The notes: generated by a model not told the origin, from the letters alone. A stretch of DNA of 64,000 nt from an uncultured delta proteobacterium (GCA_963752565.1 CAVVZC010000021.1:64934-128933), one strand, 5' to 3'; shown: positions 48,030-63,217, counted from the first letter of the stretch. Numbers and translations: made by a program.

Positions 48030-48050
48030 AGAGTAATGGAAGAAAGCAAA

Positions 48051-48178
48051 GGTTTCAGGTGTCAGGTGTCAGGAAAATAGAGGTTTCAGTATTCAGTGTT
48101 CAGGTTTCAGCGGTTCCCTTTTTCTTTCCCGACACCTGACACCTGACACCTGACACCTGGTATCTGACACCTGAAACC
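48051..48178. repeat. long hairpin built from 7-nt tandem repeats, (GGTGTCA/GGTTTCA)n ... (TGACACC)n
   Basis: Left arm GGTTTCAGGTGTCAGGTGTCAGG. Right arm CGACACCTGACACCTGACACCTGACACCTGGTATCTGACACCTGAAACC. Starts 22 nt after the kinase stop. Confidence 0.85.
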
Positions 48179-48228
48179 TACATGTGCCTGAACTCAGAAC
48201 TCAGAACACCTCAAAGAGGAAATGACTA

Positions 48229-48923: not shown

Positions 48924-48929
48924 AAAGGA

Positions 48930-49388
48930 ATGGAGTATTGGAGTGATGGAGTGGTGAGAAAGAACCGAAACCGCGGATACCAAAAGTTAACGGTGTGGAA
49001 AGATGCCATCGAATACTATGTGCTGACGTGTGATGTCTTTCGGTCTTTTCCTTTCGAGTTGAAGCGGGTGTCCTCACAACAGATAGCATCATCCGATTCT
49101 GTTCACCGAAATATCGCGGAGGGATACTGCCGACGTTCGATCAAGGAATACCTCAATTTCCTGAACATTTCTCTGGGTTCTTTGGGTGAGTCCGTATCAG
49201 GGCTCTTCGGTTATGTTAATGCAAAACAAATATCCAAGGCACATTTTGAGAAACTCGATTCCTTAGCCTATAAACTTGAAAATGGGCTTTTGAAGCTTGT
49301 TGAAAGCCTGGAGCGAAAGCGAGACAAAGGAGAATGGATTGACCATTTGGTTGTCAAGGAAAGCAATGCCGTTTATGGAAAAGAGTAA
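48930..49388 (+). CDS. four-helix-bundle protein (23S rRNA intervening-sequence protein family)
   Basis: 152 aa. YQKLTVWKDAIEYYVLTCDV, SVHRNIAEGYCR and EYLNFLNISLGSLGES are characteristic of the family. The first about 9 codons are encoded by the (GGAGTNNN)3 repeat. Confidence 0.75.
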   Translation: MEYWSDGVVRKNRNRGYQKLTVWKDAIEYYVLTCDVFRSFPFELKRVSSQQIASSDSVHRNIAEGYCRRSIKEYLNFLNISLGSLGESVSGLFGYVNAKQISKAHFEKLDSLAYKLENGLLKLVESLERKRDKGEWIDHLVVKESNAVYGKE

Positions 49389-49390
49389 CC

Positions 49391-49447
49391 CAATACTCCA
49401 TCACGCCAGCACTCCAGTACTCCAGTACTCCAACTCTCCAGTTCTCC
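49391..49447. repeat. 8-nt-periodic (ACTCCNNN)n block, inverted partner of (GGAGTNNN)3 at 48927-48958
   Basis: CAATACTCCATCACGCCAGCACTCCAGTACTCCAGTACTCCAACTCTCCAGTTCTCC on the right versus GGAATGGAGTATTGGAGTGATGGAGTGGTGAG on the left. CCAATACTCC and ACTCCATCAC are exact complements of left-arm strings. Confidence 0.8.
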
Positions 49448-55587: not shown

Positions 55588-56262
55588 CCCGTCCCCCAGT
55601 TTCTCCATCTCCCCATCTCCAAGTCTCCAAGTCTCTCCTTCCCCTTATCTTCCTGACCTCTGACCTCCGACACCTGTTGGAGCGAAGCGGAAATCCCGAT
55701 TTATCGGGGATCCCCTATGACCTGTTCCCTGACACCTTTCCCCATCACTCCAGCACTCCAACACTCCATTTCTTTTCCCCCATCCCCCCGTCTCCCCGTC
55801 TCCCGTCTCCAGTCTCCCTCCCTGACCTCCGACACCTGTTGGAGCGAAGCGGAAATCCCGATTTATCGGGACCTATGACCTGTTCCCTGACACCTTTCCC
55901 CATCACTCCAGCACTCCAACACTCCATTTCTTTACCCCCATCTCCCCGTCTCCAAGTCTCTCCTCCCCATCTCCTGACCTGACCTCTGACACCTGTTGGA
56001 GCGAAGCGGAAATCCCGATTTATCGGGGATCCCTGACACCTTTCCCCATCACTCCAGCACTCCAACACTCCATTTCTTTTCCCCCATCTCCCCGTCCCCC
56101 CGTCTCCCCGTCTCCCGACCCTGACACCTGTTGGAGCGAAGCGGACTTGTCCGCCTGTGCAGTGTGGCGGAAATCCCGATTTATCGGGGACACCCGAAAC
56201 CTGACACCTTTCCCCCATCACTCCAGCACTCCAACACTCCATTTCTTTACCCCCTCCCCCAT
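55588..56262. repeat. tandem array of four 135-160-bp composite repeat units
   Basis: Each unit is (CTGACC/CTGACACC)n, then GTTGGAGCGAAGCGGAAATCCCGATTTATCGGGGA, then CTGACACC, then CATCACTCCAGCACTCCAACACTCCATTTCTT, then (CCCCGTCT)n. Core copies lie at 55676-55710, 55838-55871, 55995-56029 and 56130-56190; the last carries a 26-nt insert. Confidence 0.85.
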
Positions 56263-56760: not shown

Positions 56761-57583
56761 ATGAAACAATTTAGAATCATTACACTTTTATTTGCAGCAC
56801 TCAGCCTGTTCAATATCGCAGCCTTCACTCATACCGTTCGGGGGGAAGACAAAGGCACACAGGATCTGGCCAAGGCCGCCCAGAATCCGGTGGCCAACAT
56901 GATCAGCCTGCCGCTCCAGAACAATACCAATTTCGGTGTCGGGCCGGGGGACGACACACAGAACATGCTCAATATTCAGCCGGTGATTCCCGTCAAGCTG
57001 AGCGAGAACTGGAACCTGATCACCCGCACCATTGCACCGGTGATCTATCAGCCGGAACTGGTCCCGGGAACCGGCAGCGAGTTCGGCCTCGGGGATATCA
57101 ACACGACCCTGTTTCTCTCACCCGCCAAGCCGGGGAAACTCATTTGGGGTCTTGGACCGGTGCTCTCCTTCCCCACGGCCACTGACGACGTTCTGGGCAA
57201 CCGACAAATGGAGCGCAGGACCCTCGGTCGTGGCACTGACGATACAGGGCCCATGGGTCGTCGGTGGGCTCGCCAGCAATCTGTGGTCCTTTGCGGGTGA
57301 CGATGATCGACCGGATGTCAATCAGTTCCTGTTTCAATACTTTATCAACTACAACCTGCCCAAGGGCTGGTATGTCTCGTCCGCACCCATCATCACAGCC
57401 AACTGGGAGGCGGACAGCGGCAACCAGTGGACGGTGCCCTTCGGAGGGGGTGTCGGAAAGATTTTCAAGATCGGAAAGCAGCCCATAAACGCCCAGGTAC
57501 AGGCCTTTTACAATGTGGAAAAGCCGGACAACGGACCCGACTGGACCCTGCGGCTGCAATTGCAGTTTCTGTTTCCGAAGTGA
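56761..57583 (+). pseudogene. outer-membrane beta-barrel protein (MetA-pathway/phenol-degradation-like transporter family), split by a 1-nt frameshift near 57196-57200
   Basis: ORF 56761-57300 has a signal peptide and runs to ...GLGPVLSFPTATDDVLGN. ORF 57152-57583 in the next frame continues DKWSAGPSVVALTIQGPW...ITANWEADSGNQWTVPFGGGVGKIFK...LQLQFLFPK, ending in an aromatic-rich C-terminal strand. Confidence 0.65.
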
Positions 57584-57589
57584 ATAAAA

Positions 57590-57658
57590 GGTGTCAGGTG
57601 TCGGGTTTCAGATGTCAGCGGTTTACTTTGCCTTTCCTGACACCCGACACCTGACACC
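57590..57658. repeat. (GGTGTCA)n / (TGACACC)n hairpin followed by TTTT (terminator-like)
   Basis: GGTGTCAGGTGTCGGGTTTCAGATGTCAGCGG...CCTGACACCCGACACCTGACACC, then TTTTAA. Confidence 0.8.
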
Positions 57659-57719
57659 TTTTAACCCCTGAACGTTGAACCCTTGAACTTAGAACCTAAA
57701 GTCAATAAAGGAATGAATA

Positions 57720-58457
57720 ATGAAAAGTTTGGTTAGAAACAGCATTTGGATCGCAGCGATTCTGGTTTGGGTCTTTTGCTCGACCGGCATCCTTTATGCC
57801 GAAGAATCCGCCATGGACGACGGCTGGAAGTTCGGTGCCGAGCTCTACTTCTGGGGTGCTTCAATTGGCGGAAAATCGGCTTCCGGCAGTGACATCGATA
57901 TCGATCTCGACGACATTCTCGACAGCTTGGAATTCGCTTTCATGGGATCGGCCGGGATGCGCAAGGGCAAGTGGTCGCTGGTTGCGGATGTGATCTATCT
58001 GGACGCAGAGAATAGCGCCACCATCGCGCCCGGCCTGAACGCCAACGTGGAACTTACCAACTGGATCATCACGCCGCTGGTCGGCTACAACCTCGTCGAC
58101 ACGGGAAAGAGTCGCCTCGATATCGTGGGGGGTGCACGTTATCTCTACATGAAGGCCGATCTGCGGGTGGATGCTTTGGGTGCGCGTGCGGAAGATTCCG
58201 GATCGAATTGGGACGCTATTATCGGCGCAAGAGGTGCCGTGGACCTGGCGGAAAAGTGGTATCTGTTCGGCTATCTGGATATCGGCACCGGGGAGTCGGA
58301 TTTGACCTGGCAGGCCTTTGGCGGAGTGGGCTACCGGTTCAAGTGGTTCGATGTGGTCGCAGCCTATCGCTATCTGCGCTGGGATTTCGACGACAATCAG
58401 GCATTGGACGATTTATACCTCCACGGTCCTGGAGTCGGGATCAGGTTCGCGTTTTGA
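57720..58457 (+). CDS. outer-membrane beta-barrel protein
   Basis: 245 aa. Signal peptide, alternating amphipathic strands, and a terminal ...GVGIRFAF aromatic residue. Confidence 0.65.
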   Translation: MKSLVRNSIWIAAILVWVFCSTGILYAEESAMDDGWKFGAELYFWGASIGGKSASGSDIDIDLDDILDSLEFAFMGSAGMRKGKWSLVADVIYLDAENSATIAPGLNANVELTNWIITPLVGYNLVDTGKSRLDIVGGARYLYMKADLRVDALGARAEDSGSNWDAIIGARGAVDLAEKWYLFGYLDIGTGESDLTWQAFGGVGYRFKWFDVVAAYRYLRWDFDDNQALDDLYLHGPGVGIRFAF

Positions 58458-58492
58458 TGGTCTTGCCGCGAAAACACCGATCGCAAGACACC

Positions 58493-58554
58493 GGTGTCAG
58501 GTTTCAATGGTCCTTTTGTATTTTCCTGACACCTGACACCCGACACCCGAAACC
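58493..58554. repeat. (GGTGTCA)n / (TGACACC)n hairpin
   Basis: GGTGTCAGGTTTCA ... CCTGACACCTGACACCCGACACCCGAAACC. Confidence 0.8.
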
Positions 58555-58558
58555 TAAA

Positions 58559-58585
58559 AAGGTGGAACCTGACACCTTGTTTTTT
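58559..58585 (+). terminator. rho-independent terminator candidate
   Basis: AAGGTG-GAACCTGA-CACCTT stem-loop followed by GTTTTTT. Confidence 0.55.
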
Positions 58586-58642
58586 AGCCCTGAGCCCAGA
58601 ACGGTGAACCCGGAATTTAAAGTTAATAAAGGAGATAACAAA

Positions 58643-60193
58643 ATGAAAACGAAAACATTAACACTCATGGCCTTTACCATACTGCTGGCGTCCAGCCTAA
58701 TTACTCCGGCTTCCGCCCAGCAGGAAAAGAGCATCTTCGAGCAGGCTGGCAGTCGAAGCCAAATACACTACCGGAGACTTCAAGCCTGCGCCCGGCAGAA
58801 GATTGAAACCCGGTTCGGAACCTGGAACTTCCCCGGCGGCTACCCCACGGAAGAGACCACGCAGAAGGTCTACGACGAGCTGGATCTGCAGCGCGCCACC
58901 CAGTTGTATCTCGATATGTATCCCGCCCTGTCCATGCGTGGAATGATGCTCGGAACGGCGCGTGATTACGGCGCAAAGAACAGTTCGGATATCTCGGTTA
59001 CTGCCGACCGACTGGATTCCAGCGCATTGTTCCTGACCGGTAATACGGAGAGTATCTATGCCATGATCGTGTTTGACCTTAAAGTAGATGGCCCTACGGT
59101 TTTTGAAGCGCCCGCCGGATTGATGGGCCCTGTGGATGACGCGAACTTCCTGTTTGCTTTCGATATTGGCCCCACCGGCATGGACAAAGGCAAGGGCGGA
59201 AAATACCTGATTCTTCCTCCTGGTTACAAAGGTGATGTGCCGGACGGCTATTTTGTATTTAAATCGCCGACCAATCGTCTCTTTTCGTTTGTCCGCGCCA
59301 ACGCGGCGGTGGTCGGAACCGGCGAAAAAGCGATGGAATTCTTTCGCAAGAACGCCAAGGTCTATCCATTAAAAACCGGACCGAGGAAAGGCAAGTTTAC
59401 CAATGTGTCAGGGGTGCCGATCAATACATTGGTTCCCGAAGATGCCACCGCTTTCGAATGGATGCATGACATCATCAACTATGAACCGGCCGAAGCCTTC
59501 GGCAAAGAGAAGCTGGGACGTCTCGCATCCATCGGTATTGTACAAGGCAAGCCGTTCAACCCCGACGCCCGCATGAAGAAGATCCTGGACCAGGCCGCTA
59601 AAGAAGGCGTGGCGATGTCCCGCGTGATCGCGTTCGACAGTCGTCAGTCCATGGCGAAGGTCTATCCGAATCGTATGTGGGAGAGCCCCTACATCGGCGA
59701 CAGCTCAAGCTTCGATCCGGATGGCTACTTTAATCTGGAGTCGCGGACGACGTTCCACTTCACCGCTGATGGTATCACGCCAGCCATGGCGGCCCAAATG
59801 CCGGATGGATTGGGTTCCAGATACCAGACTACTTACAAAGATAAGAATGGCAACTCGCTTGACGGCAATAAGACCTATAAGCTGCACATGCCGCCGAATG
59901 TTCCGGTTAAACTGTTTTGGGCTGTGACGGTCTACGATCCATGGAACCGTTGCACAATCCAGACTCAGCCGTACCCAAGCATCAGCAGCCAGCAGAAGCC
60001 GGCACCAACCACCAATGGTGATGGTTCCATCGACATCTATTTCTCGGTCGAGAAACCAGCCGATGTTTCGAAAGCGAACTGGGTCAAAACCCTGCCGGAC
60101 CAGGGATTCTTTGTCTACATGCGCTACTACGGTCCGCTCAAGGCGTTCAACGAAAAGACCTGGATCCCCAATGATGTGGAACTGGTGAAGTAA
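58643..60193 (+). CDS. secreted DUF1254/DUF1214 two-domain protein (paralog A, GC-rich)
   Basis: Start at ATG 58643 (SD GGAGA upstream). Signal peptide MKTKTLTLMAFTILLASSLITPASA. GPTGMDKGKGGKYLILPPGYKGDVPDGY and C-terminal PPNVPVKLFWAVTVYD...DGSIDIYF...NWVKT...FFVYMRYYGPL. The track ORF start at 58208 runs through the repeats and is not credible. Confidence 0.75.
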   Translation: MKTKTLTLMAFTILLASSLITPASAQQEKSIFEQAGSRSQIHYRRLQACARQKIETRFGTWNFPGGYPTEETTQKVYDELDLQRATQLYLDMYPALSMRGMMLGTARDYGAKNSSDISVTADRLDSSALFLTGNTESIYAMIVFDLKVDGPTVFEAPAGLMGPVDDANFLFAFDIGPTGMDKGKGGKYLILPPGYKGDVPDGYFVFKSPTNRLFSFVRANAAVVGTGEKAMEFFRKNAKVYPLKTGPRKGKFTNVSGVPINTLVPEDATAFEWMHDIINYEPAEAFGKEKLGRLASIGIVQGKPFNPDARMKKILDQAAKEGVAMSRVIAFDSRQSMAKVYPNRMWESPYIGDSSSFDPDGYFNLESRTTFHFTADGITPAMAAQMPDGLGSRYQTTYKDKNGNSLDGNKTYKLHMPPNVPVKLFWAVTVYDPWNRCTIQTQPYPSISSQQKPAPTTNGDGSIDIYFSVEKPADVSKANWVKTLPDQGFFVYMRYYGPLKAFNEKTWIPNDVELVK

Positions 60194-60204
60194 CGTTAAA
60201 AAAA

Positions 60205-60274
60205 GGTGTCAGGTGTCAGTGTTCAGGTGTCAGTATTTTCAACGCCTGACACCTGACACCCGACACCTGAAACC
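60205..60274. repeat. (GGTGTCA)n / (TGACACC)n hairpin
   Basis: GGTGTCAGGTGTCAGTGTTCAGGTGTCAG ... CCTGACACCTGACACCCGACACCTGAAACC. Confidence 0.8.
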
Positions 60275-60299
60275 TTTATCTTGTAGAGGAGGAAACACA

Positions 60300-61853
60300 A
60301 TGAAAACAAATCACTTTTTCACATTGGCAATAGCCATGATTATGGTGAGCAGCCTGACATCTCCAGTCTGGGCCAAATCCCATAAAACAAAGATGATTAC
60401 CCAGACGCCGAAAATGAAAATGACGACCCCAATTCCGGTAAATATAACTACACCGGATAAAATAGAGTCACCGATCGGAACATTGGAGTTTTTCGATGGT
60501 GTACCCAATCGTAAAACAATAGATGCAGTATATGATTATGTTGACCGTGCAAGGGCAGTAGAGGCTTTTATTAATATGACGCCAGCCGTTTCGTTATACA
60601 ATCTACGTAAAGGGAATCGTGATATGGAAATGGGTAATTGTAACCAAATATTAATTTGGGAGCAGTTAGGCGATTCTAAGTCACTTGCACTTACCTATAA
60701 CAACACGTCTTTATATACTTGGGGATTTCTTGATCTTAAGAAAGACGGCCCTACGGTAATAGAAATTCCTCCCGGTGTACTCGGTATTTTAGATGATGCA
60801 GCCTTTAGATATATTACCGATATGGGAGCAGCCGGTCCTGATAAAGGAAAAGGCGGGAAGTACCTGGTTTTACCTCCGGGATACAAAGGTGATGTGCCGG
60901 ATGGATATTATGTATATAGATCAAACACCTATAATGTTTGGAATTTTATGCGAGGTTACACCAAAACCGGTGTTGAAGCAGCTGCAACTAGAATTAAAAA
61001 AAACCTGAAAGTGTATCCATTATCGGAAAAAGACAATCCTCCTAAAATGGAATTCAAAAATATGTCGGGTGTGTATTACAACACTGTTGCCCCGAATGAC
61101 TATACTTTCTTTGAAGACCTGAACCAAATCATTCAGGAAGAGCCGGAAGGTTTTTATGATGCTGAAAACTTAGGTATCTTAAGATCATTGGGTATAGTAA
61201 AAGGTCAGCCTTTTAACCCGGATGAACGCATGAAAAAATTATTAACAGAAGGTGTAAATATAGGAAATGCTTACGCGCGTGCAAATACCATTGAACCACG
61301 CGATCCGGGTCACTACTACTATCCTGGCACCAAAAGCGAATGGGTAATGGCTTTCGCCGATAACGACACTTACTTCTTAAAAGATGGTGCACGTCGTATG
61401 GATTCACGTTTGTGGATGCATTTTAATGCAGTGTGTGTAACTCCAGCCATGGCATTAACCAAACCAGGGGCTGGTTCACAATATGGCATTGCAGGTATGG
61501 ACTCAGAACATAGAGCTTTAGATGGCGCCAAGACTTATAAAATGCACTTACCACCGAAGTTTCCAGTTAAAGATAATTGGTCTGTAACAATTTACGATCC
61601 GCAAACAAGATGTATGCTTCAAACCGATCAGAAGTTTGCCGGTATCAACAGCTTAAGCGGAAAAGTAAAAGAAAATAAGGATGGATCTATTGATGTTGTT
61701 TTTGCCCCTACTTTACCTAAAGGAGTTAATGAAGGCAATTGGGTGCAATCTATTCCAGGCAAGAGCTGGTTCATCATCTTACGGGCATACGGGCCTTTGG
61801 CACCATGGATCGACAAGACCTGGCGGCCGGGTGAGCTTGAGATGGTGAAGTAG
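60300..61853 (+). CDS. secreted DUF1254/DUF1214 two-domain protein (paralog B, AT-richer)
   Basis: ATG 60300 is preceded by GGAGGAAAC. Signal peptide MKTNHFFTLAIAMIMVSSLTSPVWA. GAAGPDKGKGGKYLVLPPGYKGDVPDGY and C-terminal PPKFPVKDNWSVTIYD...DGSIDVVF...NWVQS...WFIILRAYGPL. Confidence 0.75.
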   Translation: MKTNHFFTLAIAMIMVSSLTSPVWAKSHKTKMITQTPKMKMTTPIPVNITTPDKIESPIGTLEFFDGVPNRKTIDAVYDYVDRARAVEAFINMTPAVSLYNLRKGNRDMEMGNCNQILIWEQLGDSKSLALTYNNTSLYTWGFLDLKKDGPTVIEIPPGVLGILDDAAFRYITDMGAAGPDKGKGGKYLVLPPGYKGDVPDGYYVYRSNTYNVWNFMRGYTKTGVEAAATRIKKNLKVYPLSEKDNPPKMEFKNMSGVYYNTVAPNDYTFFEDLNQIIQEEPEGFYDAENLGILRSLGIVKGQPFNPDERMKKLLTEGVNIGNAYARANTIEPRDPGHYYYPGTKSEWVMAFADNDTYFLKDGARRMDSRLWMHFNAVCVTPAMALTKPGAGSQYGIAGMDSEHRALDGAKTYKMHLPPKFPVKDNWSVTIYDPQTRCMLQTDQKFAGINSLSGKVKENKDGSIDVVFAPTLPKGVNEGNWVQSIPGKSWFIILRAYGPLAPWIDKTWRPGELEMVK

Positions 61854-61862
61854 GAGATAAGT

Positions 61863-61980
61863 ATTCAGGTGTCAGGTGTCAGTGTTCAGGAAAATGAAGG
61901 TGTCAGTGCTTGTCAGCCTCTGGCTGATTCAGGTTTCAGGAAATACAAACCACGATCTGACACCTGACACCTGAAACCTA
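61863..61980. repeat. (GGTGTCA)n / (TGACACC)n hairpin region
   Basis: ATTCAGGTGTCAGGTGTCAGTGTTCAGG...GGTGTCAGTG...TCTGACACCTGACACCTGAAACC. Confidence 0.8.
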
Positions 61981-61987
61981 AAAAGGT

Positions 61988-62010
61988 GGAACCTGAAACC
62001 GGTTCCTTTT
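61988..62010 (+). terminator. rho-independent terminator candidate
   Basis: GGAACC-TGAAACC-GGTTCC stem-loop followed by TTTT. Confidence 0.55.
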
Positions 62011-62049
62011 ATAAAGCCAGAACCCTGAACCCTGAAATGGAGGTATAAA

Positions 62050-63033
62050 GTGAGCAAGAATCGGGGGTTAGCAAAGACTGTGATAACGATATTGGCGCTG
62101 GTGCTGTTGAGCAGTGCCGGCGCGCTTGTTACTCCATTAGCAAACGCCGATGAAGGCGGTGCGAGCTTCTGGCTTCCCGGGCAATATGGTAGTCTGGCAG
62201 CGACGCCGGCCGAACCCGGATGGTCCATGCCGTTGATCTACTACCACAGCTCTACGGACGCCAGTGGCAGCAAAAACTTTACGATAGGCGGCAGCCTCAC
62301 CGCGGGTATCGATGTCGACGTAGACTTACTACTCGTTGTACCGACCTATGTTTTCGCCAAGCCCGTCTTCGGTGGCCAAGCGACTCTCAGCGTTGCCGCA
62401 GACTACGGACGTGCGGAAGTTGATGTGGATGCCACACTGACGGGACCGGGCGGGGGCGTCCTGTCCGGCAGTGAAAGCGACTCAAACACCGCTTTCGGGG
62501 ACCTTTTTCCCTCTGCTTCCCTTCGCTGGAATCATGGCGATCACAACACCATGATCTACACCATGCTGGGTGTGCCTGTAGGCAGTTATGACGTTGAACG
62601 CCTGGCCAATATCGGTCTCAATCACTGGTCGGTTGATGCAGGCGGCGGCTACACCTACCTCAACACGAAGACCGGCCGTGAGTTCTCTGCGACGGCAGGC
62701 CTCACCTACAACTTCGAAAATCCGGATACCGACTACCAGAACGGTATCGATGCCCACCTGGATTGGGGTGCCTCGCAATTCCTGTCCGAGCAGGTGCATG
62801 TTGGCCTGGTCGGTTATTTTTACTATCAGATCACCGGTGACAGCGGTGACGGCGCCGTACTGGGAGACTTCAAATCCCGCGTCAACGGCATCGGGCCGCA
62901 GGTGGGATACATCTTCAAAATGGGCGGAAAAGATGCCTATCTGAACCTCAAAGGGTATTGGGAATTCGGCGCTAAGCATCGGCCGGAAGGCTGGAATGCT
63001 TGGCTCACCCTGGTGCTGCCCCTTGGCGGATGA
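62050..63033 (+). CDS. outer-membrane beta-barrel transporter (MetA-pathway/phenol-degradation-like family)
   Basis: 327 aa. GTG start 6 nt after GGAGG, signal peptide ending ANA, EGGASFWLPGQYGS, and strands rich in G/Y/F. Family assignment is by pattern only. Confidence 0.6.
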   Translation: MSKNRGLAKTVITILALVLLSSAGALVTPLANADEGGASFWLPGQYGSLAATPAEPGWSMPLIYYHSSTDASGSKNFTIGGSLTAGIDVDVDLLLVVPTYVFAKPVFGGQATLSVAADYGRAEVDVDATLTGPGGGVLSGSESDSNTAFGDLFPSASLRWNHGDHNTMIYTMLGVPVGSYDVERLANIGLNHWSVDAGGGYTYLNTKTGREFSATAGLTYNFENPDTDYQNGIDAHLDWGASQFLSEQVHVGLVGYFYYQITGDSGDGAVLGDFKSRVNGIGPQVGYIFKMGGKDAYLNLKGYWEFGAKHRPEGWNAWLTLVLPLGG

Positions 63034-63119
63034 AGCAAGTAACGTTGAAAAGATCCGGGGCAAAGCAGGTGGATCCAGACGCGGCCGGGTGATCCGGAGC
63101 TGGTCAAGTAGCAGGAATA

Positions 63120-63163
63120 GGTTTCAGGTGTCAGGTGTCAGCGAAACACAAATCCTGAAACCT
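63120..63163. repeat. (GGTGTCA)n hairpin
   Basis: GGTTTCAGGTGTCAGGTGTCAGCG...CCTGAAACC, followed by TTTAAA. Confidence 0.75.
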
Positions 63164-63217
63164 TTAAATCTCATAACACATAACTCTTAACCCTAATTTA
63201 ATAAGGAGAAATACAAA

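Follow-up and report, generated by a model that had tools for sequence, protein, structure and literature searches.

Heptamer-armed hairpins in a deltaproteobacterial gene cluster may be gene-less members of a widespread class of repeat-armed palindromes

Introduction

Are the GGTGTCA-armed hairpins that occupy the gaps of a bacterial gene cluster punctuation marks selected by their host, or repeats that the gaps tolerate? We address this question in a 64,000-nucleotide stretch of DNA from an uncultured delta proteobacterium (GCA_963752565.1, CAVVZC010000021.1:64934-128933), which we call the window and whose positions we count from its first nucleotide. Six hairpins with stems of GGTGTCA-type heptamers lie within the window, and two more lie beyond its end on the same contig, in a co-oriented gene cluster. 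Their architecture is shared with cassettes that carry a PF05635 gene (23S_rRNA_IVP, a four-helix-bundle protein), both in this genome and in others. We favor, with some reservation, the explanation that the hairpins belong, as forms without a gene, to a widespread and rapidly changing class of repeat-armed palindromes related to the intervening sequences (IVSs) of 23S rRNA; they would be selfish or neutral, grown by slippage, and homogenized locally by recombination.

To our knowledge, tandem heptamer repeats such as the short tandemly repeated repetitive (STRR) sequences of cyanobacteria, the TAACTGA repeats, and the paired sites of Geobacter have gone without explanation for decades. The present locus shows a hairpin form of these repeats with a strict polarity, and it offers a case in which to ask whether stems of the IVS type have the same effect on mRNA operons as on 23S rRNA.

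Hairpins in the gene cluster

Period-7 arrays of GGTGTCA, GGTTTCA, and GGTGTCG oppose arrays of TGACACC, CGACACC, and TGAAACC, as seen in the sequence and with Tandem Repeats Finder (TRF), which places heptamer arrays at 48050-48179, 57589-57659, 58525-58555, 60204-60275, 61865-61979, and 63119-63141. H0 denotes the hairpin after the histidine kinase gene, H1 to H5 those in consecutive cluster gaps, and H7 one beyond the window end (Table 1). Relative to shuffled sequences, the RNA folds of H1 (57584-57665; -48.6 kcal/mol, z -10.6), H3 (60196-60282; -44.5 kcal/mol, z -9.6), H4 (61860-62009; -63.7 kcal/mol, z -5.9), and H0 (48042-48190; -60.1 kcal/mol, z -5.2) are the strongest. H5 (63110-63170; -17.7 kcal/mol, z -3.2) and H2 (z -2.4 for its 108-nt context) are weak. 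The H1 stem pairs 25 of 26 positions by Watson-Crick rules, with one mismatch, and the outer stem of H0 has 21 Watson-Crick and 3 G-U pairs. The loops of H0 to H5, 12 to 75 nt long, contain no open reading frame (ORF) and no PF05635 gene or remnant. A search of Rfam families returned nothing at gathering score, the only matches being chance-level microRNA precursors far below it.

A preliminary description, made from the sequence alone, had located hairpins with such arms at these six places, and the arrays and folds bear it out, weakly for H2 and H5. Its statement that every cluster gap is filled holds from 57584 on. The spacing it gave, 7 to 90 nt past a stop codon, agrees with measured distances of 7, 36, 12, 10, and 87 nt for H1 to H5 and 22 nt for H0. 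A consensus scan recovers both of the stem-plus-T-run terminators that it had noted, and the string that it saw following GAAAC, the 19-nt CTAAAAAGGTGGAACCTGA, links the terminators after H2 and H4: its only two occurrences in the genome are those at 58554 and 61978. It was also right that a (GAACC)n tract often comes next. Such tracts, which also match the TGANNCC frame, follow four of the six hairpins (48190-48207, 57663-57696, 58588-58619, and 62020-62036). Finally, ORFs 58208-60193 and 60213-61853 are inflated as described, reading through hairpins ahead of the true ATGs at 58643 and 60300, each of which has a ribosome-binding site (RBS). For annotation, the hairpins therefore matter twice, causing false ORF extensions and marking true gene boundaries.

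The features of a terminator, a short G+C-rich stem with a direct T-run, are present in the small stems at 58559 and 61988 and in H7. H1 and H3 have TTTT and TTTATCTT, but with stems of 22-26 bp. Only 25 nt separate H3 from the start of the next gene, D2. The contig extends 2.5 kb beyond the window, where the next two gaps carry one-unit versions of the GGTGTC stem. On contig L174, a D1 orthologue is preceded by a full (AGGTTCA)n/(TGAACCC)n hairpin, whose right arm is the homologue of the tract before D1; the alignment with window 58586-60192 has 86.7% nucleotide identity.

Table 1. Hairpins, associated elements, and genes. Coordinates are window positions; those above 64,000 continue the same count along the contig.
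Feature	Coordinates	Strand	Description
H0	48051-48178		24-bp outer stem; inner branched part also heptamer-built; 3' of histidine kinase gene
Tract after H0	48188-48211 (also given as 48190-48207)		GAACTCA/GAACC type; TGANNCC-like units prolonging right arm
Octamer-armed PF05635 element	48925-49447	+	Gene 48930-49388 between inverted GGAGTRNT and ANYACTCC arrays
Porin-like gene	56761-57583		Split by frameshift near 57150-57300 (ORFs 56761-57300 and 57152-57583); Pfam
H1	57586-57662		AAAA-(GGTGTCA GGTGTCG GGTTTCA)...(TGACACC CGACACC TGACACC)-TTTT
Tract after H1	57663-57700		(TGAACNY)n; upstream of RBS of gene 57720-58457
Outer-membrane-like protein gene	57720-58457		245 amino acids; Pfam
H2	58493-58554		Asymmetric, 2 left and 4 right units; 14-bp stem
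Small terminator after H2	58559-58585	+	Stem of one GGTG...CACC unit (58559-58578), then GTTTTTT; consensus scan
(GAACC)n tract and RBS before D1	58586-58642	+	
D1	58643-60193		DUF1254/DUF1214 protein; Pfam
H3	60198-60278		A7-(GGTGTCA)2 GTGTTCA GGTGTCA...(TGACACC)2 CGACACC TGAAACC-TTTA; between D1 and D2
D2	60300-61853		DUF1254/DUF1214 protein; Pfam
H4	61863-61980		Perfect 19-bp heptamer stem (19/19 Watson-Crick) enclosing 75-nt branched interior
Small terminator after H4	61988-62010	+	GGAACC TGAAACC GGTTCC (61988-62006), then TTTTAT; consensus scan
Tract after H4	62015-62040		(GAACCCT)n; upstream of Phenol_MetA_deg gene
Phenol_MetA_deg outer-membrane protein gene	62050-63033		Pfam
H5	63119-63163		Left arm 3 units, right arm down to one unit; 10-bp stem
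D3	starts 63218		Third DUF1254 protein; Pfam
One-unit hairpin after D3	64743-64779		TTCAGGTGTCAGTG...CACTGACACCTGAA
H7, one-unit hairpin after D4	66337-66366		GGGTGTCCGTGTTT-ATT-AAACACGGACACC, then TGGTTTTTC; textbook terminator form

Shared architecture with PF05635 cassettes

The genome comprises 4.05 Mb in 28 contigs (cited as C3, C6, and so on) with 43.7% G+C. Period 7 is its commonest tandem-repeat class (583 of 2488 TRF rows, in many different words). Clean inverted pairs of tandem 7- to 9-mer arrays number 28 genome-wide, each family having its own word, and pairs with a gap of 390-450 bp enclose PF05635 genes (for example C14:69718, C3:231801, C3:248531, C21:5271, and the octamer-armed element at 48925-49447 in the window). 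The two best-scoring PF05635 genes, at C3:241151 and C3:248594, are 83% identical. Around them, at C3:241071-241516 and C3:248534-248979, GGGGTCA/GAGATCA/GGTTTCA arms face TGACCCC/TGATCCC, sharing both the GGNNTCA/TGANNCC heptamer frame and the polarity of the window hairpins. A PF05635 remnant is also seen in a loop elsewhere in the genome (C6:380229-380345, E 7e-4).

The same architecture is found in other genomes. A Desulfobacteraceae contig (L065) carries a PF05635 gene (E 1e-22) flanked by GGTGTCA arms, and its protein has GGNNTCA-armed proteins as best matches. Two genomes, G176 and G028, have 18 PF05635 genes, of which the majority lie between inverted tandem arrays whose word differs from gene to gene, and the arm words of the G176 genes reappear there as gene-less arrays. 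The word is retained between orthologous proteins: AAATGCCTA between our C14 protein and that of L220 (81% identical), GGAGTRNT between the window PF05635 gene and L226 (78%), and GATTGCR between L227 and L228 (75%). The word thus goes with the PF05635 protein subfamily from one genome to another.

Some further features of these words were seen. In G176, which belongs to another family of the same phylum, the intergenic regions are crowded with many 7- to 8-mer words equal to those of its own PF05635 arms. A CTGA core is common to TAACTGA (Beggiatoaceae and cyanobacteria), MTYCTGA (Geobacter class 3), and CACCTGA/AACCTGA/CCCCTGA here, and at least three tandem copies of such heptamers put TGA in all three frames of that strand. 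A universal three-frame stop module fits (TGANNCC)n and fails for the other words of the class.

Several known systems resemble the window hairpins in part, including STRR sequences, to which the preliminary description aptly likened them. The 23S rRNA IVSs, both the Coxiella/Leptospira type with an S23p/PF05635 ORF and the Salmonella type without one, have a long near-perfect stem of terminal inverted repeats, as here, and a PF05635 gene in the loop, as in the gene-carrying relatives of our hairpins. In Coxiella, the 28-bp IVS stem contains strain-variable tandem heptamers (two to three copies of GACAGAT) and is cut by RNase III at the first repeat (PMC4990558). Unlike IVSs, the window hairpins lie between protein genes rather than in helix 25 or 45, and have no ORF. 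Classes 1-3 of Geobacter metallireducens are likewise intergenic inverted pairs of three to five tandem 7- to 8-mers, and there, too, one genome has several word families. CTGA is the core common to their class 3 word, MTYCTGA, and to CACCTGA here, but the words otherwise differ; these repeats were read as sites for IHF/HU-type regulators, a function untried there, and no link to PF05635 was made (PMC2700814). The STRR repeats of heterocystous cyanobacteria and the TAACTGA repeats of Beggiatoaceae are, as here, intergenic heptamers scattered so patchily over the phyla that horizontal spread is suggested. They have been described mainly as direct arrays, with 169 direct sets and 1 indirect set in Maribeggiatoa, whereas the unit here is an inverted pair of fixed polarity (PMC4679880). 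The REP (repetitive extragenic palindromic), BIME, and REPIN elements of Enterobacteria and Pseudomonas are also extragenic palindromes, dispersed and selfish-looking, which lie inside operons and can attenuate transcription or stabilize the mRNA upstream of them. The window hairpins differ in lacking a GTAG head and in having arms of tandem repeats, and the genome has no intact gene of the RAYT type: its single Y1_Tnp match, on contig C28, is a pseudogene with three stop codons and has no flanking heptamers. We therefore rejected a RAYT/REP origin.

The family within the genome

Tandem GGTGTCA-type arrays are nearly limited to the window's contig. Perfect-stem hairpins (at least 9 bp) of the form GGTGTC...GACACC number 17 genome-wide, all in one 18-kb stretch (48058-66366). 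The scan matches span 48058-64747, and the hairpin at 66337, whose 3-nt loop is self-pairable, falls outside the scan definition. Six control hexamers gave zero or one hairpin each, and the flipped order gave none. The family is therefore local rather than a genome-wide punctuation. The preliminary description had considered a systematic gene punctuation, which would be an unusual feature of the genome, naming confinement to this one locus as contrary to it, and confinement is what we find.

A second local cluster of one word (GAAAACAC/CACGAAAG) lies at C10:60544-64696, with three hairpins in 4 kb, one of which encloses a PF05635 remnant. Local clustering of one word is thus not special to the window.

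Occurrence and gene context in other genomes

The exact 21-mer (GGTGTCA)3 occurs on at least 120 contigs from many phyla. In a sample of 401 genomes from the same phylum, the 14-mer is present in 15, and a reversed control in 4, as single matches. Bursts occur in some genomes, with 195 matches to GGTGTCAGGTGTCA in G176 and 39 in G028. In a species collection, the pattern (GGTGTCA)2-N5-35-(TGACACC)2 is found on at least 120 contigs and the flipped order on 1, so the unit is a palindrome in one polarity. The phyla with this pattern are Desulfobacterota, Planctomycetota, Gemmatimonadota, Chloroflexota, Acidobacteriota, Cyanobacteria, and Bacteroidota. One exact word is common to at least seven phyla, and the word is tied to the PF05635 protein subfamily. 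Polarity is also a property of the wider class: in our genome, 24 of the 28 tandem-armed pairs, counted over all words, have the purine- or G-rich array on the 5' side. A literature search for the GGTGTCA word itself found no paper.

We sampled 182 non-redundant family hairpins from other genomes, using rough ORF calls; both flanking genes could be called for 124. The gaps are co-directional in 84 cases (68%), convergent in 21 (17%), and divergent in 19 (15%). This split is close to that expected for intergenic gaps generally, an expectation estimated from general knowledge rather than from a measured background. The family occurs in all gap types at about the expected shares and is therefore not tied to gene ends. 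Within co-directional gaps, 57 hairpins are nearer the upstream stop and 26 nearer the next start (median distances 19 and 45 nt). Fold energy favors the sense strand in 40 cases and the antisense strand in 40 (13 versus 15 in a smaller comparison), and we accordingly rejected selection for sense-strand folding at the RNA level. Downstream of the 3' arm, T-runs are not enriched in 359 flanks from the family; the bases past that arm are decaying TGANNCC units. With neither T-run enrichment nor a sense-strand fold bias, the family taken together does not look like a terminator or a strand-specific RNA. These counts do not support the role in gene punctuation that the preliminary description had suggested.

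Two other candidates were rejected. An outward promoter was considered since CTGACA in the right arm matches five of six positions of a -35 box, but TANNNT is unenriched at any offset past the 359 arm ends. As donors of the island we considered G028 and G176, in which GGTGTCA hairpins abound; there, however, homologues of the cluster either are missing or reach no more than 68% identity.

Turnover between related strains

For a strain comparison, we used metagenome contigs with orthologues of gene 57720-58457, which show four states at the locus; an exact-protein look-up for strain variants gave no match. In L131 (95.7% nucleotide identity), window position 58512 is joined to 61860, so that the H2 left arm runs into H4 and neither D1 nor D2 is present. 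The left arm is enlarged to three copies of a 21-mer, the right arm has two units, and a different gene comes next. In L138 (86%), the heptamer hairpin at the H2 site is a different one. The H1 site of L143 (85%) is occupied by a hairpin that resembles H5, and an unrelated small hairpin element is nested in its arm. In L132 (76% protein identity), the same two genes are separated by 70 nt that contain no hairpin. Arms lengthen and shorten independently of each other, and copies at this locus swap parts with one another. The hairpins are also places where gene content changes between strains.

The hairpins appear to be younger than the cluster genes, because the four DUF1254/DUF1214 paralogues are only 42-55% identical, with 41-54% G+C, while the stems between them are near-identical.

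The small nested element, GGAGCGAAGCGGAAATCCCGATTTATCGGG, is itself repeated, with four copies in 158-bp composite repeats at 55660-56240. In L143 it sits within the heptamer arm of the H1 site (L143:239-303), and so it appears able to move. In the same contig, the orthologue of gene 57720-58457 is split by about 2.7 kb of foreign sequence without a counterpart here (L143:691-3356), which is either a true insertion or an assembly chimera.

Interpretation and alternative explanations

Each arm is a tandem array made from a single 7- to 9-nt word, here GGNNTCA in the 5' arm and TGANNCC in the 3' arm, and in its gene-carrying form the class has a PF05635 gene in the loop, built like an ORF-bearing 23S rRNA IVS. 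We propose that the hairpins are gene-less members of this class. The arrays would lengthen by replication slippage, and one hairpin lineage may have spread along the cluster and been homogenized through recombination or gene conversion. The cluster itself may be horizontally mobile. Persistence would come mainly from the tolerance of intergenic gaps for such elements. Once transcribed, the hairpins would form perfect RNA helices of 19-26 bp, predicted to be likely substrates for RNase III, whose gene (rnc) is present in the genome, or for termination. Such helices might be cleaved or block exonucleases, with partial termination where a T-run trails the hairpin (H1, H3, and H7), so the operon would be split or attenuated as a side effect. 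We regard these RNA consequences (RNase III cleavage, 3'-end protection, and partial termination) as putative and secondary.

Four observations weigh against this explanation. In neither G176, despite its 195 heptamer matches, nor G028 did we find a PF05635 gene with GGTGTCA arms, and a gene-carrying parent for this word is therefore not seen there. No sharp element ends or target-site duplications are seen, the outer flanks fading into degenerate units; growth in place therefore fits better than discrete insertion. For the same reason, and with no linked transposase, we rejected a miniature inverted-repeat transposable element (MITE). In addition, the explanation does not account for the occurrence of an identical word in identical polarity across phyla. 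Lastly, placement 7-36 nt past stops and adjacency to T-runs are more regular here than family-wide, so the hairpins may have been co-opted locally for termination or processing.

The last point leads to host-selected RNA punctuation, in which the hairpins would be intercistronic terminators or attenuators, RNase III sites, or 3'-end stabilizers, retained because they fix how strongly the cluster genes are expressed relative to one another. REP/BIME elements in Escherichia coli operons and the RNase III sites between the early genes of phage T7 are comparable. Every cluster hairpin follows a stop, at a distance of 7-36 nt in six cases, and the gaps are co-oriented. H1 and H3 carry a 5' A-tract and a 3' T-tract, small terminators trail H2 and H4, the sense strand of H0 has three G-U and no A-C pairs, and stems of 19-26 bp are long enough for the RNase III that the genome encodes. 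The bias toward the upstream stop in co-directional gaps of other genomes (57 versus 26; medians 19 and 45 nt) points the same way. The family is nevertheless found at ordinary rates in both divergent and convergent gaps, as judged against the estimated expectation, shows neither T-run enrichment nor a sense-strand fold advantage (40 versus 40), and is found at a single locus in this genome. Grossly unequal arms are frequent (L131 and H2), and the site is empty between the same two genes in L132. We consider punctuation unlikely, though it deserves to be taken seriously. A reading of each heptamer as the site of a DNA- or RNA-binding protein, with the hairpin potential incidental, is improbable in our judgment. 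Its layout has a precedent in the Geobacter metallireducens repeats, three to five tandem 7- to 8-mers in opposite-strand pairs of variable spacing, for which Aklujkar et al. proposed IHF/HU-type global regulators (PMC2700814), and the co-variation of word and PF05635 subfamily would be consistent with a protein that reads its own word. However, a polarity of at least 120 to 1 and near-perfect arm complementarity indicate that what is conserved is a palindrome rather than a site array, no candidate regulator is linked to the cluster, and the family is at one locus only in this genome.

Two further alternatives concern the genes together with their hairpins, and we give either hardly any credence. 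In an integron-like array, the hairpins would be attC-type sites 3' of each gene cassette, possibly in a cluster of attC sites lacking an integrase. Co-oriented genes each trailed by a hairpin, G+C jumps from gene to gene along the cluster (41-57%), a join in L131 that falls inside hairpins, and the 80-87% identity of D1 across phyla would suit such an array. It is largely refuted. No integron integrase was found: with the TIGR02249 cut-off at 265 bits, the highest-scoring match reaches 95, and the window contig has none. The stem bases show no R''/R' core sites (RYYYAAC/GTTRRRY), the genes have their own RBSs and 5' regions, and family hairpins also occur in divergent gaps elsewhere. The D1-D2 pair is conserved in many genomes, and these genes are therefore not independent cassettes. 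Tandem duplication of a gene with its terminator, in which the hairpin neither spread nor was exchanged on its own, would suit a row in which four DUF1254/DUF1214 paralogues stand together with three genes for outer-membrane proteins, and would suit the 19-nt string and terminator common to H2 and H4. It conflicts with near-identical stems between paralogues that are 42-55% identical and up to 13 G+C points apart, with D1 alone having 80-87% identical orthologues in other phyla, and with strains in which hairpins are swapped between sites.

An extension of the explanation that we prefer, gene-less IVS-like palindromes, is that the heptamer word serves as a recognition code. PF05635 four-helix-bundle proteins are pentameric in solved relatives. 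Those of each subfamily might bind their own tandem word, and the gene-less hairpins might be trans targets of the proteins encoded at C3:241151 and C3:248594, with binding driving copying, homogenization, or the formation of gene-swap joints. We hold this to be a speculative and quite unlikely addition; if true, it would amount to gene exchange without an integrase, flagged by hairpins of fixed polarity.

Cluster genes and additional observations

The porin-like gene that precedes H1 is probably a pseudogene. No DNA-level conservation of the cluster was found among 20 relatives. D1 has orthologues at 80-87% amino acid identity in at least eight phyla, and many of the genomes that carry them also keep the D1-D2 adjacency. 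The relatives in this identity range come from metagenome-assembled genomes of Acidobacteriota, Gammaproteobacteria, Planctomycetota, Verrucomicrobiota, Chloroflexota, Actinomycetota, and Campylobacterota, a strikingly recent spread across phyla.

Several D1 orthologues (L179, L185, L196, and L203) are flanked by tandem-armed hairpins of other words, and that of Planctomycetaceae SH139 has a one-unit GGTGTC hairpin downstream, like the one after D3. In Rhodopirellula sp. SWK7 (L188), a 9-mer array, (CAATGAAAC)n with about seven copies, lies downstream of the D1 orthologue and enters the start of the next gene, producing a repeated MKP motif at the N-terminus of its product.

The genome also contains several MITE-like families with terminal inverted repeats of about 19 bp and many copies each (e.g., C10:36204, C11:122142, C13:17460, and C3:67621). 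They are unrelated, their repeat ends including TAGTGTCCATCCATAAATG (gap of about 107 bp), ACAAGCCATCTCAAAAAT (105-155 bp), TGAGACCTTTGAAAAA (about 108 bp), and TAGAACCTATCTCAAAAATAA (102 bp).

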